The translations under genes and the position numbers were made by a program. The notes beneath the pieces are model-generated. The model worked only from the letters and a program-made list of their open reading frames with translations. It was not told the DNA's origin and made no database searches. From a virus: DNA of 64,000 nucleotides. The DNA lies in the UHGV virus genome UHGV-1353844; one strand, written 5' to 3'. Of the stretch, positions 4,248 to 56,057 are shown one piece after another (within the stretch, counting starts at the first letter, position 1; the number at the start of each line of letters is the position of its first letter).

Positions 4248-4931
4248 CTACCAAAGCTTAGAACTAGTGAATGCTGCACTAGAATCTGGAACTTTGCCTC
4301 TTAATTTATCACGCAGAAGTTCAAAGAACATGCGATGATAAGCGTAATATTTTTCCAACCGATTGTATTCAATCAGGTTTTCTAACGCCGGATGAAAGCG
4401 AAGATGTTTGTTAGGACTGGTAAGGGAAAACGGAACGACTTCTTCATTAAGCAAGATAGGATACTTAACACTATCGCCCATTTCAGCATACAACATTTTG
4501 GTGTCGAAAACGAAATAAGCCGTTGGGTGAAAGCCTAACCACGTTGAAGCCTCAACAAAGAAGTCAGTCAATTTACTAGCAATCTGGCTGATCATCTTAT
4601 CGTCTGATTTAAACATCAGGCGCAGGAAAATCTCGCTAATGACTGAACCCGTAAGCAGTTTTTCTTTGTGGATACCTGGCACGACTGCCAGTACCTCATC
4701 GTCGAGTCGACAGACAAGCGTGTACAGGTCGAATACCGGGTAATGGTAAATATCGATCGTTAAACTCGCACGCGGAGTGTAACTTAAGATTTTATCCCCG
4801 TGTATTTCTGTGGCGGGCGGCATAAGCGCAAGCTTCTTGCTAGGCCCACCCTGTTTAACTTCTGCTTCCTTAGTATCAATCGGTTTTTCTACAGTTTCTT
4901 TAACTTCAGTTTTCTTAGTTCTCGGTGCCAT
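4248..4931 (-). CDS. hypothetical protein (227 aa), downstream of early-promoter-like element
   Basis: ORF track; GAGGA RBS; conserved promoter element 4956-5020 upstream; terminator 4219-4234 downstream. Confidence 0.65.
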   Translation of the reverse strand: MAPRTKKTEVKETVEKPIDTKEAEVKQGGPSKKLALMPPATEIHGDKILSYTPRASLTIDIYHYPVFDLYTLVCRLDDEVLAVVPGIHKEKLLTGSVISEIFLRLMFKSDDKMISQIASKLTDFFVEASTWLGFHPTAYFVFDTKMLYAEMGDSVKYPILLNEEVVPFSLTSPNKHLRFHPALENLIEYNRLEKYYAYHRMFFELLRDKLRGKVPDSSAAFTSSKLW

Positions 4932-5049: not shown

Positions 5050-5673
5050 TTAATTCTCTAAAATACAAGCAACGATTTCAGCCGCTTTTAACCGGTAATC
5101 GTCGTCTTGCTTCACGGGTAATAAATGGTGCAGACAACCACCTTCAGTGAGGATGTGGTGGGCAAAGCGGTAGTGGTCACGTAACGCTTCCCAGCTTTGG
5201 TTATCTTTTAAATACTTAACGGTAAGGACTTCATCGTCCCAATTCTTACCTTGTTCTTCTACCCGTTTCTTAAAGCGTGCTACTGCGCCGTCGTAATCCA
5301 CATCTGTCCAAACGTACAAATCTGGTGCGTGGAAATGACGCGTTAGCTTACGTCGGAAAACTTCGTCTTTACCGTCGACGCCCTGGTAAACGACTGTAGA
5401 GGGACAGAACCTGTCGAAAATAACAACATCGTAATCGTCAACAACATGGTCTAACGTGTGAAGGAAATCGTCGCACATCGCTTCGGCAATTTTTGCTTTT
5501 GCTGCGGACTGAATGACTAAACTGCGTGCACGGATACCCGCCTCGGTCTCCGTCGTAGGGTGATTACGGATGCAGACCTTTAACCCCGCAGATTCCAGCA
5601 TACCTTTTACTATTTTGCACAACGTCGATTTCCCAGAAAAGTCAGGGCCATCAATAGACACTGTCTTAAGCAT
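5050..5673 (-). CDS. tmk: thymidylate kinase (dTMP kinase)
   Basis: P-loop DGPDFSGKST and lid motif FDRFCPSTVVYQ (DR-Y/F...YQ); start moved from track GTG (5694) to ATG at M8 with AAGG RBS. Confidence 0.75.
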   Translation of the reverse strand: MLKTVSIDGPDFSGKSTLCKIVKGMLESAGLKVCIRNHPTTETEAGIRARSLVIQSAAKAKIAEAMCDDFLHTLDHVVDDYDVVIFDRFCPSTVVYQGVDGKDEVFRRKLTRHFHAPDLYVWTDVDYDGAVARFKKRVEEQGKNWDDEVLTVKYLKDNQSWEALRDHYRFAHHILTEGGCLHHLLPVKQDDDYRLKAAEIVACILEN

Positions 5674-5784
5674 TATCGTTTTACCTTTACGCACAAAAAT
5701 TTAAACCGATACTTCTTTATTCCATACCGGCGTTCACATAATAGCTATTGGTTGTAATAAATTTTAGGATAAAAAAGAAACCCG

Positions 5785-29030: not shown

Positions 29031-30593
29031 ATGAATAACAAAATGATGTTGATAACCGCATTAGCCACACTATACACTGAAAGTCTGCTGACCGACCCTG
29101 AGAAGGATCACGAGGTCATAAGAAAAGTGCTGTTAGAGGCTAAGCTTCCTGATTACGTAGAGGAAGGTGACGAACGTGCCGCCCTCGTCGAAATCAAGGA
29201 TATCATCACATCCATCATAGACGGCGGTATGCCTTACGACCACACAAACGTCATGAAACGTTTGAAGTTGGCCACTACGCAAATACGTCCTCTATACGAT
29301 ACGATTACCAAATTCCTGGAAGATGATATTCCAGAAGAACCAGAAGCACGCATCGAGCATCTTAACCGTCAAGTAGCACAATACTACTTCCAATTACGTC
29401 AAGCTATTCAAGGCGTACAACTGAAACAAAAATTAGGTCGTACGTTAGGCGCACTGAACGGAACAGAAACGCGCGTTGATTTACAAACGGCGCTCAACGA
29501 CCTCAGAGATAGTCTCTCTACGTTCAGTGAACGCTCTCATAATAAGATTCCCTCACTAGTTGGTGAGCTTATTACGGATAACCGTGCACCGTTCGTACAT
29601 GTGTTCGACTCAATCAGTAAGAAAGCAGCGGGTAACGGTTTACGTACCGGATGGAAAGCCATTAACCAGATGCTGGGTTGTAACAAAGGGATTACCGAAG
29701 AACTTTGGCTGATGCCTGCACTGCCTTTTAACTGTAAATCACTTTTTAGTCTGTTGTTGTCTATCAGTATTCCGGTATTCAATACACCTGAAAAAGTAAT
29801 GGAAAACGTTAAAGGGGATTTGCAGCCGGTTATTCTCGATTTAAGTTTAGAGAACGAACTGGACGTTAACTTGGCGTATGCGTACCAAGCGCTCTACGGT
29901 CATTTTGAAGGTGAAGCGCCGGTTATGGTTGCTTCTGAAAACGCTACCGACGAAGAGAAAGCTTTGCACAACACAAAAATGTCGGACTACCTCTGTAGTA
30001 AAATGCGGGCTAACGGTTGGGAGTACATCTTTCAGAAACACACAAACTCAGATTTTAAAATACACTACTTAAACGACTTAATACTGGACTTAAAGCGTCG
30101 AGGTTATCATGTAGCTGGGATTCGCGGAGACTATTTCGGGACTATCAGTAAAGCAGGTCACGGTAACGGGATTGCCGGTAGCGACATTAAAGAAATTTAT
30201 CGTATCGCTCGAAACATCCAGGTAGTACGTAACCGTGGTTTCTTGTTAGCACCACACCAAATCTCACCAGAAGGCAAAAAATTAAAAGCGTTAGACCCAG
30301 CAAGTTTCTGTAAGAACTTGCCAGGTCGCGGTCTTTACGATAACTGCTCCAGCTTGGATAACGAAGCTGACGGTGAGATGTATTTTAACAAACGTGTTGT
30401 CAATGGGCATAGTTACTTAGAAGTACAACGTGGTAAACACCGTACAATTATCGATACTAAAGAAGCTTACCATTATACAGTAATACCTTTCCGTGAAGTT
30501 GGCATTCTGCCATGGGATTGCGATAAAGAAGAAACAGTAACTGCATCGTCGATAAACGTCTTTACAGGCGGTATGGGTGACGAACTCTTTTGA
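29031..30593 (+). CDS. hypothetical protein (520 aa)
   Basis: ORF track; AAGGA RBS; followed by UUCG hairpin and U-tract terminator. Confidence 0.6.
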   Translation: MNNKMMLITALATLYTESLLTDPEKDHEVIRKVLLEAKLPDYVEEGDERAALVEIKDIITSIIDGGMPYDHTNVMKRLKLATTQIRPLYDTITKFLEDDIPEEPEARIEHLNRQVAQYYFQLRQAIQGVQLKQKLGRTLGALNGTETRVDLQTALNDLRDSLSTFSERSHNKIPSLVGELITDNRAPFVHVFDSISKKAAGNGLRTGWKAINQMLGCNKGITEELWLMPALPFNCKSLFSLLLSISIPVFNTPEKVMENVKGDLQPVILDLSLENELDVNLAYAYQALYGHFEGEAPVMVASENATDEEKALHNTKMSDYLCSKMRANGWEYIFQKHTNSDFKIHYLNDLILDLKRRGYHVAGIRGDYFGTISKAGHGNGIAGSDIKEIYRIARNIQVVRNRGFLLAPHQISPEGKKLKALDPASFCKNLPGRGLYDNCSSLDNEADGEMYFNKRVVNGHSYLEVQRGKHRTIIDTKEAYHYTVIPFREVGILPWDCDKEETVTASSINVFTGGMGDELF

Positions 30594-30597
30594 GTCT

Positions 30598-30615
30598 GGG
30601 GAGCTTCGGCTCCCC
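30598..30615 (+). other. UUCG stem-loop immediately after stop of plus gene (no U-tract)
   Basis: GGGGAGC-ttcg-GCTCCCC starting 5 nt after stop; likely 3' stability element. Confidence 0.4.
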
Positions 30616-30699
30616 CTACGACCCCTTATGCGTCCCGAAAAGCAAAAAAAAACAAGACATCTAATATTTATGAACGAAAGTCAACTACTGAACTAAGTA

Positions 30700-30725
30700 G
30701 GGGGTGGTAGCACACCCCCTTTTAT
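30700..30725 (+). terminator. intrinsic terminator (GGGGTG...CACCCC family)
   Basis: Hairpin followed by TTTTATT; same stem as hairpins at 31031 and 31367. Confidence 0.55.
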
Positions 30726-30728
30726 TAG

Positions 30729-30902
30729 TTAGTAGCGTTCACTCCTTTTTTCAGTGATTATCTGTGTGAAACGGTTGGTTGATGGTTTTAATCGTTTATT
30801 CGCACCGAGTTGACTATACTCGTAGATACGTTGCTGTAAATTGGTTTTTGCTGCATATTGTTCTGCAAGCATTTTGTCAGTAAAGTAGTAACCATTGTTC
30901 AT
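30729..30902 (-). CDS. small hypothetical protein (57 aa)
   Basis: Track ORF shortened to M14, where AAAGAGGG lies ~10 nt upstream; sits between structured RNA modules. Confidence 0.4.
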   Translation of the reverse strand: MNNGYYFTDKMLAEQYAAKTNLQQRIYEYSQLGANKRLKPSTNRFTQIITEKRSERY

Positions 30903-30937
30903 GGTATAAGCCCTCTTTGTAGGGTGATTAAAGAAAT

Positions 30938-31055
30938 CCATTACGTTTCCGTAATGGTGCTGTAAAAGGTACGCTGCACCAACAGCGTACCTTGCTTTAA
31001 CTTCTCTTTGGAAAAGTTAAAGCGTAAAAAGGGGTGTGACAGCACCCCTTTTTAT
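30938..31055. other. four-hairpin structured intergenic module 1
   Basis: Consecutive hairpins at 30938-30957, 30968-30991, 30995-31022 and 31031-31048 followed by T-run; homologous to module 2. Confidence 0.55.
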
Positions 31056-31060
31056 TACAC

Positions 31061-31246
31061 CTACGACCACCAACTCGGCAGGTTACTGTACGAAGCTTTA
31101 CGCTTCACAGTCCCACAGCTGGGCTGTGGTCCAGGGGCAGTAATCAGACCACGCATGGCGTAGTCGTTCATGTGTGCCTTGAACCTACTTTCCCTAAACT
31201 GTGTTAATTTCGTTTGTTTTAAAACTTCCTTACGTAAATCAGGCAT
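31061..31246 (-). CDS. small hypothetical protein (61 aa)
   Basis: ORF track; GAGGT 8 nt upstream; flanked by four-hairpin modules. Confidence 0.35.
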   Translation of the reverse strand: MPDLRKEVLKQTKLTQFRESRFKAHMNDYAMRGLITAPGPQPSCGTVKRKASYSNLPSWWS

Positions 31247-31276
31247 TTTGATACCTCACTTAGTGTCTTAATGTTA

Positions 31277-31395
31277 GGCTAACAGTTCGTTAGCCGCCTA
31301 AGTAGGGACTGCCTATACAGTCCCTACTGCTTTATCTTCTCTTTCGAAAAGATAAAGCTATGATAAGGGGTGTGTCACCACCCCTTGTTTTTTTA
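31277..31395. other. four-hairpin structured intergenic module 2
   Basis: Hairpins at 31277-31295, 31302-31327, 31330-31357 and 31367-31384 followed by T-run; hairpin 3 differs from module 1 by compensatory changes (aac/gtt vs atc/gat). Confidence 0.55.
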
Positions 31396-31554
31396 TCAGT
31401 TACTTCTCCTTTCAACTATCAACTGGGTGTTTCTTGGATAAGCAACTTTGGGCTGAGTTAACGTTGGTTGCGCTATTTCACTAACCCTACGTTGAAATTC
31501 GAGCTGTTTTACGGACAACTCGTTTAACCTTTGAAACAACTGTTCATGTTTCAT
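31396..31554 (-). CDS. small hypothetical protein (52 aa), not in ORF track
   Basis: Hand-translated MKHEQLFQRLNELSVKQLEFQRRVSEIAQPTLTQPKVAYPRNTQLIVERRSN; GGAG ~9 nt upstream. Confidence 0.3.
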   Translation of the reverse strand: MKHEQLFQRLNELSVKQLEFQRRVSEIAQPTLTQPKVAYPRNTQLIVERRSN

Positions 31555-31598
31555 GAACTTTTCTCCTATGTTGAAGTTGCGAAAATAAATAAAGTGTA

Positions 31599-31624
31599 CC
31601 CCTAATCCCGAAAAGGATTAGGGG
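31599..31624 (-). terminator. intrinsic terminator
   Basis: CCCCTAATCC-cgaaaa-GGATTAGGGG; A-rich upstream on plus. Confidence 0.6.
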
Positions 31625-31630
31625 TTGCTT

Positions 31631-32446
31631 TTATTTAATCGCTACGTATTGAACATGACCACATTCCTTACATTGCACGTTGGCTTGCGGGAATGTTAGG
31701 CCGGTTAAAGGAACACGGATTCGATACTGTGCACCACATTCTTCACAAACAAAATCGTGTTCTGGATAAACACGACCTTTCAATTTCTCATCCTTCCTTA
31801 ACGTTTCAGCCAGGAAATGCATGGCTCCTAACGCTTCATTAATCTGCTGTTCCCATTCACCGTCTAACGGATATGCGAACGCTCGAATCAACGTTTCCAC
31901 CATCTCCGGTTTATTGCTCACGTAGACGTGTTTCAATTCAAACTCTACGCGTTGTAGACCGAACAGCACACGTGCAGTTACCGTTACATTATCTAACGTT
32001 TGTGCAAACGCAACGGGATTATCATCACCGTACATTGCGAATAACCCAGCACGTTCGTATTCGATATCGCTCCACTCGATTAGTTCTACAGATTTAATCG
32101 CTTCCGCAATCTCAGCTTTACCGAACGTTTCATGTTCCAATAATCCGACGATAACTTCATTCAACGATTTCAATTGCTGTAAACGAATCACAGGATCGGT
32201 ATTCACGATAAGCAAACGATGCATTCTGGATTTCAACCAGTTAATCGTTCCTTCTACACCACCCCCAAACGAGCAGATGCTTATCACTTCAGGTTCACGA
32301 AGGATAAGAGTGGATTTTCCTGCTGCCGTACTCAAGTAGAGTTTAAAAGACTTATCGCTGGACTCTGCAACGATGGCAATGTCTTCAGTTGGAACGAAGT
32401 TTTCATTGCTCAGCCCACGCGGAAAATAATCTTTAATAGTAATCAT
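31631..32446 (-). CDS. hypothetical protein with C-terminal zinc-ribbon (CxxC...CxxC)
   Basis: ORF track; C-terminus FVCEECGAQYRIRV...QCKECGHVQY; GGAG RBS; terminator 31599-31624. Confidence 0.6.
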   Translation of the reverse strand: MITIKDYFPRGLSNENFVPTEDIAIVAESSDKSFKLYLSTAAGKSTLILREPEVISICSFGGGVEGTINWLKSRMHRLLIVNTDPVIRLQQLKSLNEVIVGLLEHETFGKAEIAEAIKSVELIEWSDIEYERAGLFAMYGDDNPVAFAQTLDNVTVTARVLFGLQRVEFELKHVYVSNKPEMVETLIRAFAYPLDGEWEQQINEALGAMHFLAETLRKDEKLKGRVYPEHDFVCEECGAQYRIRVPLTGLTFPQANVQCKECGHVQYVAIK

Positions 32447-32477
32447 CTTTTATGCTCCAATTAATAAAAAAATTAAG

Positions 32478-32493
32478 GGCACCCGAAGGTGCC
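32478..32493 (-). terminator. intrinsic terminator (UUCG loop) after lipoprotein gene
   Basis: GGCACC-cgaa-GGTGCC preceded by AAAAAAATTAA. Confidence 0.55.
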
Positions 32494-32500
32494 TTATACA

Positions 32501-32644
32501 TTAACCACGACCAGTGCACTGCGCAACGGAATTACCGTTGTCGATGCAAGTGTCGTAGCCTTTATCGATGTCCAGGTACAGGCAACCCAGAACAACAGCG
32601 ATAACAACAGCGAAGATAGCTTTTTTGTGTTTTACAGAAATCAT
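32501..32644 (-). CDS. small lipoprotein (47 aa precursor, lipobox VLG|C), not in ORF track
   Basis: Hand-translated MISVKHKKAIFAVVIAVVLGCLYLDIDKGYDTCIDNGNSVAQCTGRG; AGGAG 7 nt upstream; early-promoter-like element upstream; UUCG terminator 32478-32493. Confidence 0.55.
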   Translation of the reverse strand: MISVKHKKAIFAVVIAVVLGCLYLDIDKGYDTCIDNGNSVAQCTGRG

Positions 32645-32671
32645 GATATAGCTCCTAATTAGGTATTCGAT

Positions 32672-32735
32672 AAATGAGTATTACGTAATTCTCTCACCTA
32701 AGTAATATATATCTGAAAATATTTTAATTAAAACA
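32672..32735 (-). promoter_or_regulatory. conserved early-promoter-like element, copy 3
   Basis: Divergent copy (ATTACGTAAT palindrome, core TATATATTAC) upstream of lipoprotein gene. Confidence 0.5.
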
Positions 32736-32849
32736 CCCTCTAAAACGCGCTGTATCGCATTCTGACAGCCTTTTATTTTTTTAAACACCATTAATCGTCT
32801 TAAGGTGTAAAACAGCGTCTAAGACGCATTCACGAGTAAATAAAAGGAC

Positions 32850-32877
32850 ATCCCGTTACCCACAAAGGTAACGGGAT
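32850..32877 (-). terminator. intrinsic terminator
   Basis: ATCCCGTTACC-cacaaa-GGTAACGGGAT preceded by A-rich tract. Confidence 0.55.
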
Positions 32878-32881
32878 AATT

Positions 32882-50642: not shown

Positions 50643-50656
50643 AAAAATAAAAAGCT

Positions 50657-50684
50657 ACCCTACTCCCGAAAAGGAGTAGGGTAC
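50657..50684. terminator. bidirectional terminator (twin of 56016-56042)
   Basis: TACCCTACTCC-cgaaaa-GGAGTAGGGTA flanked by A-run and T-run; between convergent genes. Confidence 0.6.
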
Positions 50685-56015: not shown

Positions 56016-56042
56016 ATAAAAGCTACCCTACTCCTTTCGGGA
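56016..56042. terminator. bidirectional terminator (twin of 50657-50684, loop inverted)
   Basis: Same 24-nt upstream flank and stem, loop tttcg instead of cgaaaa. Confidence 0.6.
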
Positions 56043-56057
56043 GTAGGGTAATGCTTA

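Follow-up and report, generated by a model that had tools for sequence, protein, structure and literature searches.

Hairpin modules among the tiny genes of an SPN3US-group jumbo phage as candidate two-way terminators and cassette junctions

What are the two modules of consecutive hairpins that separate tiny open reading frames (ORFs) at positions 30,594 to 31,630 of the virus genome UHGV-1353844, a stretch of 64,000 nucleotides (nt) that we call the window? A preliminary description of this DNA had suggested that they could be a structured small-RNA or leader locus of an unrecognised type. Our analysis favours another answer, to which we give a probability of about 0.55. Judged from sequence, the modules would be two-way stop signals and RNA-end hairpins placed between fast-shuffling tiny genes, and would act as the junctions at which gene cassettes are exchanged. 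What is new here is a variant of a known element and not a new RNA class.

Hairpin modules in an array of tiny paralogous genes

Both modules, of about 115 nt each (30938-31055 and 31277-31395), hold four strong hairpins (h1 to h4, by rising coordinate), as first described. Folded as 131-nt RNA, they reach minimum free energies (MFEs) between -59 and -66 kcal/mol, whereas dinucleotide shuffles average near -27 (z-scores from -9.3 to -11.5; none of 200 shuffles was as stable), and this holds on either strand. Of the 24 intergenic GC hairpins of the window, eight fall within 30598-31625.

The ORFs of 57, 61 and 52 amino acids (aa) listed earlier are present on the minus strand, which is also the dominant gene strand of the window. 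Gene A (31396-31554; 52 aa, MKHEQLF...) is preceded by the Shine-Dalgarno (SD) sequence AGGAG, gene B (31061-31246; 61 aa, MPDLRKEVL...) by GAGGT and gene C (30729-30902; 57 aa, MNNGYYF..., a form that its relatives share) by AGAGGG 8 nt before the ATG; the spacing from SD sequence to ATG is correct in all three. Orthologs in relatives show mostly synonymous differences, with ratios of nonsynonymous to synonymous difference (pN/pS) of 0.05-0.42 (0.05 for gene A, 0.29 for B and 0.16 for C). The tiny proteins can be aligned with each other, with gp71 and gp72 of phage SPN3US and with a 47-aa Machinavirus protein, and have in common the pattern ...Q.(Q/R)F(N/Q)(Q/E)R...E... and a basic C-terminus. 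Genes A and C are gp71/gp72-family paralogs, which for A is seen in the family alignment, and B, placed by the same alignment, is a divergent member of the family. The proteins are rich in Q, R, K and E, hydrophilic and basic. SPN3US gp72 matches phrog_18219, a PHROGs family of unknown function, and the window ORFs had no significant match in PHROGs or Pfam and gained no functional annotation from either. The substitution patterns and alignments indicate that the three ORFs are real genes under purifying selection, paralogs of gp71/gp72 and not incidental frames. The hairpins are therefore intercistronic parts of a gp71/gp72 array. A periodicity of about 335 bp runs across the locus, and the locus can thus be described as a tandem array of paralogous gene cassettes. 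The two copies of the non-coding block from h4 to h3 in the window share 85-90% identity, whereas the coding parts can hardly be aligned.

In module 1, on the minus strand, h1 (30938-30957) is an 8-bp hairpin specific to gene C, in whose leader it lies, h2 (30966-30993) is an 11-bp GC hairpin with a 6-nt loop and the plus-strand tail GCUUUAACUU, and h3 (30994-31023) is an A/U-rich 13-bp hairpin with one U.G pair on that strand. The symmetric h4 (31025-31054; TAAAAAGGGGTG-N6-CACCCCTTTTTA), terminator-like in both directions, begins 7 nt past the stop codon of gene B. Module 2 follows the same order on the minus strand, with a 7-bp h1 in the leader of gene B (31277-31295), an 11-bp GC h2 with a 6-nt loop (31301-31328) and an h3 that carries the T..A state of a swapped pair (31329-31358). 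Its h4 (31365-31386; GGGGTG-N6-CACCCC), 10 nt past the stop codon of gene A, has a minus-strand tail beginning UUAUCAUA and the plus-strand tail UUGUUUUUUUAU. The third GGGGTG/CACCCC hairpin lies at the convergent junction with the helicase gene (30699-30720; plus-strand tail UUUUAUUAG) and likely serves both as terminator for the helicase gene and as 3' hairpin for the last tiny gene. The GGGGTG-N6-CACCCC motif was said to recur, and it is found exactly three times in the window (30701, 31031 and 31367), with 0.04 expected.

At this locus a block of minus-strand genes ends, facing the convergent plus-strand gene of a DnaB-like replicative helicase (29031-30593; Pfam divDNAB, E = 4.9e-126). 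Judging by this protein, the window belongs to a jumbo phage of the SPN3US group (SPN3US/Machina-like), related to phiKZ: the helicase is 84% identical in aa sequence to SPN3US gp73 and to its counterparts in phiEaH2 and Asesino, and shares 79% with the Machinavirus helicases. In a megablast search against known phages the helicase end alone was matched, and blastn of the 1-kb region gave no match.

Conserved pairing and inverted loops among relatives

Relatives were collected with an exact-pattern scan for the h3 motif, which gave three IMG/VR contigs and nine metagenome-contig stretches from about seven assemblies, and with a protein-based scan, which added one further genome carrying the module. 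Together these relatives provide 22 copies of the module from about 12 genomes, always at the same locus, and the h3 motif is confined to this locus in relatives of 150-225 kb. The 64 kb of the window contain exactly two copies of the 30-nt motif (none expected), and the paired A/T swap between them is as first described.

Pairing is well preserved. In an alignment of 21 copies, 98.8% of cells are standard pairs, and both partners have changed in 11 of 32 pairs; none of 500 shuffles came up to the alignment in pairing or in covariation score, slid controls brought pairing down to 44-59%, and RNAalifold independently recovered the same three helices. For h2 of module 1, 7 of 11 pairs covary and every cell is paired across the 21 copies. 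Most of the h2 covariation comes from a single split into two sequence types with the same geometry, and the search pattern used largely fixed the h3 stem, including its U.G. Counted by eye, there are at least six separate double changes: A-U/U-A in h3; GGG/CCC to GAG/CUC, U-A to C-G and G-C to A-U in h2; and A-U to G-C and A-U to U-A in h2b. Intermediates are seen as A.A and G.U at the swapped h3 pair and as G.U in h2. The hairpins are thus kept in related phages, where pairing persists through many double substitutions. A hairpin is present at every position even when its sequence has been replaced: four unrelated types of h1 occur, and non-homologous GC hairpins (GGGGTG, GGGGAGTG or GGAGGGGCTG) substitute for one another at the same place after stop codons. 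This constant presence despite replacement does argue for function.

The loops behave differently from the stems. Seven exact reverse-complement pairs of loops were found among the module copies, five in h2 (TATAGG/CCTATA, CGCCAA/TTGGCG, CGGTAA/TTACCG, CACCAA/TTGGTG and CTACAA/TTGTAG) and two in h4 (CTGTCA/TGACAG and CTGACA/TGTCAG). At the orthologous junction between genes A and B, loop columns differ at a rate of 0.267 compared with 0.011 for non-loop columns, about 24-fold, and at the junction between B and C the figures are 0.250 and 0.060. The h2 loop of module 2 reads TATAGG, CGGTAA or TTACCG at orthologous junctions whose flanks are about 99% identical, and the h1 loop of module 1 reads GAAA, UUUC, GUAA or CUUC on a retained stem. 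The loop of the 30699-30720 hairpin is hypervariable and flips among relatives (GTAGCA, TCGCCG, GTAGTG, TTGTCAC / GTGACAA), and that of an 11-bp hairpin at 31598-31625 is CGAAAA or TTTTCG, each in about half of the relatives. UUCG/CGAA tetraloop hairpins are unchanged among relatives and cultured isolates. Loop variability of 0.28-0.50 remains after allowing for flips, compared with a synonymous difference (pS) of 0.06-0.22. Cultured Seoulvirus isolates flip as well (TTCGAG/CTCGAA, CTGGAA/TTCCAG and CTAA/TTAG), so the inversions are not assembly artefacts. Among SPN3US-like cultured isolates that are 96-99% identical, terminator loops of 6-7 nt are inverted or replaced (SPN3US, L002, 5931-5948 against L144-L146; ~5657-5682 against L144-L149).

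Template switching between the arms of an inverted repeat gives arm homogenisation, seemingly simultaneous compensatory changes and spacer inversion (PMC8794818, PMC8604942). Because it yields compensation and loop inversion together, compensatory change is expected here without step-wise selection on RNA. The covariation had been taken to argue for selection on RNA structure; that pairing outlives double substitutions stands, but it is not clean evidence for such selection, as the loops flip in the manner of template switching.

Probable back-to-back terminators and competing explanations

A covariance model built from h4-h3-h2 matched the intergenic regions flanking gp71 in SPN3US and the equivalent region of pEa_SNUABM_29 (E ~0.002-0.04). 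The plan shared with three Machinavirus phages runs from a GC hairpin through TTTTATATTTATTTTC, a short loop and GAAAATAAAAGG to a second GC hairpin, SD sequence and ATG. In SPN3US, pEa_SNUABM_29 and Machinavirus this composite stands upstream of the first tiny gene, and the AU palindrome at the centre of the SPN3US and Machinavirus composites is what the h3 of the window aligns with. The first GC hairpin of the composite is solitary at another Machina site, where TTTTATTTTTTTT follows it, and elsewhere in the window hairpins after minus-strand genes carry the same (C)TTTTATTT tail, of which the A-rich...ATAAAAG stretch with its hairpin is the mirror image. These composite homologies, solitary-hairpin tails and mirror-image tails, together with the terminators of phiKZ and 201phi2-1, lead us to regard the core as two probable back-to-back terminators. 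The locus is therefore not of an unrecognised type, its core being homologous to a composite of two such terminator tails in SPN3US, pEa_SNUABM_29 and Machinavirus.

The details of the hairpins are partly consistent with this assignment. As in intrinsic terminators, the stems of h4, h2 and 31598-31625 have 8-12 bp with 5-6 G-C pairs, and TTTAT tails are general among the hairpins of the window. A plus-strand U-tract directly 3' of the stem is found at all three GGGGTG hairpins and also at h2. On the minus strand, a U-tract is present at 31025-31054, a symmetric palindrome with A5/T5 flanks and the minus-strand tail UUUUUAC; it is weak at 31365-31386 (UUAUCAUA, then the U-rich arm) and absent at 30699-30720. 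On the gene strand the 31365-31386 hairpin is followed by UUAUCAUA-GCUUUAUCUUUUC, which resembles the hairpin and TTAT tail of phiKZ terminators. The U-tracts said to favour plus-strand termination do exist behind the GGGGTG hairpins and h2, but the asymmetry is weaker than claimed, since 31025-31054 is symmetric and the sense strand has hairpins with TTAT or U-rich tails. In phiKZ, intrinsic terminators consist of conserved GC hairpins followed by TTAT (PMC10914365), an arrangement found here for h4 on the sense strand (module at 31277) and on the plus strand. For 201phi2-1, 132 termination sites have been mapped, 15 of them bidirectional (PMC11512511).

We therefore propose the following model. 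Each tiny gene would carry a copy of one ancestral intergenic composite, with the order on the mRNA strand being stop codon, h4 and its U-rich tail, an A-rich stretch and h2, the h1 leader, and finally SD sequence and ATG. Since the U-rich and A-rich stretches are complementary, they can pair as h3. The h4 hairpin and its tail would halt or attenuate sense transcription and cap the upstream tiny mRNA at its 3' end; h2 with its tail, and h4 with its plus-strand U-tract, would halt antisense transcription arriving from the convergent helicase gene; and the hairpins at RNA ends would shield these ends from exonucleases. The 65-nt h4-h3 block, being far more conserved than the genes, could serve as a homology patch for the duplication, deletion and swapping of cassettes. 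Stems would stay paired through selection against broken hairpins combined with template switching or gene conversion between arms, and the same arm-to-arm copying would invert the loops.

Several observations weigh against this model. The strand tests are weak: G.U and A.C events stand at about 7:3, the MFEs are mixed (the sense strand is favoured for h3 alone, the antisense strand for h4 and neither for h2 with h1), and the U.G of h3 is imposed by the pattern. The sense tail of the 31365-31386 hairpin is broken by an 8-nt linker and is weaker than the tails of other window terminators. The h3 loop flips in none of the 21 copies, whereas the 4-nt loop of h1 does; this and the U.G that h3 keeps in the mRNA hint at a role for h3 that depends on orientation and that by-product inversion does not explain, and loop variability is above what inversion alone would give. 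Termination, its direction and its efficiency are read from sequence, and we found no published SPN3US transcript map in the literature. Finally, no promoter was identified for the downstream tiny genes, which would be needed if h4 terminates efficiently; the explanation would be either that the terminators leak and act as attenuators, or that the AU-rich element is at the same time a promoter for a phage RNA polymerase (RNAP).

This last option leads to an alternative that we consider unlikely, in which the module is a cassette of terminator and promoter like the promoter-early stem-loop (PeSL) elements: h4 terminates, h3 is a phage-RNAP promoter, and h2 and h1 are 5' leader hairpins that stabilise the tiny mRNAs. 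Early promoters of phiKZ are AT-rich with a T-rich upstream element (PMC8244752), terminators directly adjoin promoters in 201phi2-1 (PMC11512511), and the PeSLs of T4-type phages follow the same logic between small ORFs of hyperplastic regions. It also fits that the AU palindrome is conserved across three genera in sequence and not just in pairing, and that its non-flipping loop suggests an orientation-specific element. Unlike a promoter class, however, the h3 motif has no further copy in the 64 kb; partial matches proved to be A-rich tracts before other hairpins, and the palindrome was rejected as a recurrent promoter motif. Each half of h3, moreover, matches the terminator tail beside solitary hairpins. 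Sigma-70-like sites are not enriched (20 found, 24 expected), and the sole 9/12 match within a module (31378-31349, minus strand) takes its -35 element from the hypervariable h4 loop, so no conserved sigma-70 promoter is seen. No promoter consensus for SPN3US-like phages was found published.

The stand-alone structured RNA of the preliminary description appears improbable. It would be a plus-strand cis-antisense RNA that ends at the h4 U-tract, or a processed RNA of several hairpins, controlling the tiny genes or a host target with its loop sequences as specificity determinants. Plus-strand U-tracts behind every GGGGTG hairpin and h2, a very stable fold on both strands, and stems that are conserved under loops that vary beyond pS are in its favour; conserved stems with hypervariable loops are familiar from the specificity loops of antisense RNAs. 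Against it, Rfam gave no match and the sigma-70 scan no plus-strand promoter, loops that flip freely can hardly matter as sequence on a fixed strand, the element is homologous to terminator composites, and the tiny proteins, hydrophilic and basic, are unlike type I toxins. A related idea, that the variable loops are specificity determinants of a kissing-loop RNA-RNA or RNA-protein circuit that sets the expression of the fast-evolving tiny proteins or discriminates between related co-infecting jumbo phages, is highly improbable in our view; the active RNA would be either an antisense transcript of the plus strand that stops at the h4 U-tract or a processed RNA with all four hairpins, and loop diversification and inversion would then be favoured and not merely tolerated. 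We also give little credence to a purely DNA-level role, with RNA structure irrelevant and cruciforms or single-strand hairpins acting as recombination hot spots, protein-binding sites or replication signals near the helicase gene. In its favour, loops are inverted and arms homogenised at the level of DNA, the conserved block lies at the cassette junctions, and neither strand is clearly favoured for h2, h1 and h4. The replacement of GC hairpins by non-homologous ones after stops nevertheless better fits a generic need for a terminator, the hairpin tails match terminator tails elsewhere, and the h3 U.G and non-flipping loop are unexpected in a symmetric DNA element.

Other features of the region concern its two borders. 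A GGGGAGC-UUCG-GCUCCCC hairpin (30598-30615, plus strand), 4 nt past the helicase stop codon, is invariant across close relatives and also found in SPN3US, phiEaH2 and Machinavirus; GGGGAGCTTMGGCTCCCC is a generic UUCG terminator hairpin that occurs at no fewer than 120 mostly unrelated loci in viral contigs. Between this stop-codon hairpin and the convergent terminator, the helicase 3' region holds a TTATGCGTCC motif and an A9 run with no evident function (30626-30652, plus strand). The motif with its run of about nine A is common to Seoulvirus, Erskinevirus and the window lineage, and Machinavirus has near-variants (TTATGTGTCC, A8); the positions in relatives are L002 ~5598-5629, L003 ~5602-5629 and L001 ~4328-4358. 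Fixed-stem terminator hairpins are re-used across sites and genera: an 11-bp stem TACCCTACTCC/GGAGTAGGGTA occurs at two convergent junctions of the window (50656-50683 and 56024-56050, with loops CGAAAA and TTTCG) and again after the phiEaH2 helicase gene (L003 ~5644-5668). At the other border, the U-rich terminator tail CTTTATTTATTTTCGCAA (31577-31594, minus strand) corresponds to the 5' half of the ancestral AU palindrome, of which the 3' half and the second hairpin have been lost here. Next to it, the 31598-31625 hairpin, with TTTAT tails on both strands, follows the gene of a 271-aa homolog of SPN3US gp70 (31631-32446, minus strand). This protein has weak C-terminal zinc-ribbon matches (CxxC...CxxC; Pfam E ~0.002, below the cutoff) and matches phrog_10180, of unknown function. 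The intergenic region upstream of its gene (32447-32881) is rich in hairpins (32475-32493, 32815-32827 and 32850-32877) and contains small minus-strand ORFs, including a hydrophobic one of 47 aa (32501-32644).

Cassette shuffling and comparison with known systems

Gene content and order vary between relatives, with h3 and h4 at the junctions. The order A-B-C of the window recurs in L131 and L133. In the other genomes it is A-X (L004), A-Y-(C fragment)-X (L005), (A deleted)-B-X (L006), (A fragment)-C-(B fragment)-X (L007), A'-Z-X (L132), A'-Z-C (L136), A''-Y-C (L137) and A-C (L135), and the contig of L138/L139 holds at least A-B-Y-C. Through these changes h1, and largely h2, move with the downstream gene and h4 with the upstream gene, while h3 is common to all. 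Seoulvirus isolates have two tiny genes or one chimeric gp71/gp72 gene, Machinavirus has one and Erskinevirus none. In SPFM4, EC001 and SEGD1 (L147, L148 and L149), a single chimera of the gp71 5' part and the gp72 3' part replaces the two SPN3US genes (L002 5697-6102), which fits an unequal crossover in the common ...GLGG... coding stretch. At one junction of L005 (7600-7800) h4 and h3 are missing, h2 directly follows the stop codon and a truncated start of gene C is fused to the leader of gene X, a remnant of cassette rearrangement.

If the terminator model is true, the idea of the mobile regulatory cassette extends from T4-type phages, which use host RNA polymerase, to SPN3US-group jumbo phages, related to phiKZ and expected to transcribe with polymerases of their own. 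Two facing terminators with pairing tails would make a candidate two-way insulator. The locus also defines a small, rapidly shuffling family of proteins of about 50 aa (gp71/gp72-like) at a fixed genome position, and such tiny-protein families are candidates for host-interaction functions. With loops that invert and stems that co-change between near-identical genomes, it is an unusually clean natural data set, and it carries the practical warning that compensatory substitutions in perfect palindromes are no proof of a functional RNA. The value of the locus would lie mainly in a jumbo-phage counterpart to PeSL-type shuffling, in the architecture of facing terminators and in the high frequency with which loops are inverted.

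Known RNA classes did not account for the modules. The Rfam/Infernal scan suggested earlier gave no match in the window at gathering score (the best sub-threshold hit, at E <= 10, had 24 bits against a cutoff of 80), and ARAGORN found no tRNA or tmRNA in it. A type I toxin-antitoxin system appears unlikely, its toxins being small and hydrophobic and the tiny proteins hydrophilic; the sigma-70 scan found no promoter for such a system or a cis-antisense RNA, with the limit that sigma-70 rules may not be those of the RNA polymerases of this phage. In h2 of module 2, GUAUAGGCAG (31310-31319, minus strand) equals what we take to be 10 nt of the type I-F CRISPR repeat. Mimicry of the repeat was rejected because the similar bases sit mostly in the loop that varies and flips in relatives; there was no Rfam CRISPR-DR match either, and the resemblance is probably due to chance.

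The repetitive extragenic palindromic (REP) sequences and bacterial interspersed mosaic elements (BIME) of enterobacteria are palindromes clustered between cistrons, where they can stabilise the mRNA upstream of them and attenuate transcription, and they exist in hundreds of dispersed copies. The modules are likewise clustered and intercistronic, but the h3 motif is found twice in the window and at one locus in relatives. Template-switch mutations reported elsewhere (PMC8794818, PMC8604942) resemble our data in their instantaneous-looking compensation, homogenised arms and inverted loops. Those reports concern rRNA, microRNA and yeast genes, whereas here inversion is very frequent between near-identical phage genomes and limited to loops of 4-7 nt other than UUCG/CGAA tetraloops.

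The PeSLs of T4-type phages are cassettes with conserved GC stem-loop terminators between small non-essential ORFs of a hyperplastic region (Arbiol et al. 2010, PMC2839356). As with PeSLs, terminator-like stem-loops stand between small ORFs of a hyperplastic region here, copies lie at the breakpoints of gene gain, loss and replacement, and recombination between copies can explain insertions, deletions and replacements among close relatives. Unlike PeSLs, the modules have no sigma-70-like early promoter in the sigma-70 scan, contain four hairpins instead of one, are confined to one locus instead of being dispersed, and flank genes of a single paralog family. The terminators of phiKZ (PMC10914365) and 201phi2-1 (PMC11512511) share with them a GC hairpin of conserved stem, re-used at several sites, and a U-rich tail containing TTAT; bidirectional sites lie between convergent genes in phiKZ-like jumbo phages, as they would at this locus. 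The stems differ: CCYCCCC/GGGRRGG of the phiKZ motif BCCYCCCCHWWDGGGRRGGBYTTATKYYGT is not matched by GGGGTG/CACCCC or the other stems here, so the two are analogous and not the same motif. In contrast to both phages, the opposed putative terminators of this locus abut, their tails pair with each other, and the resulting composite is tandemly repeated in a co-directional array.

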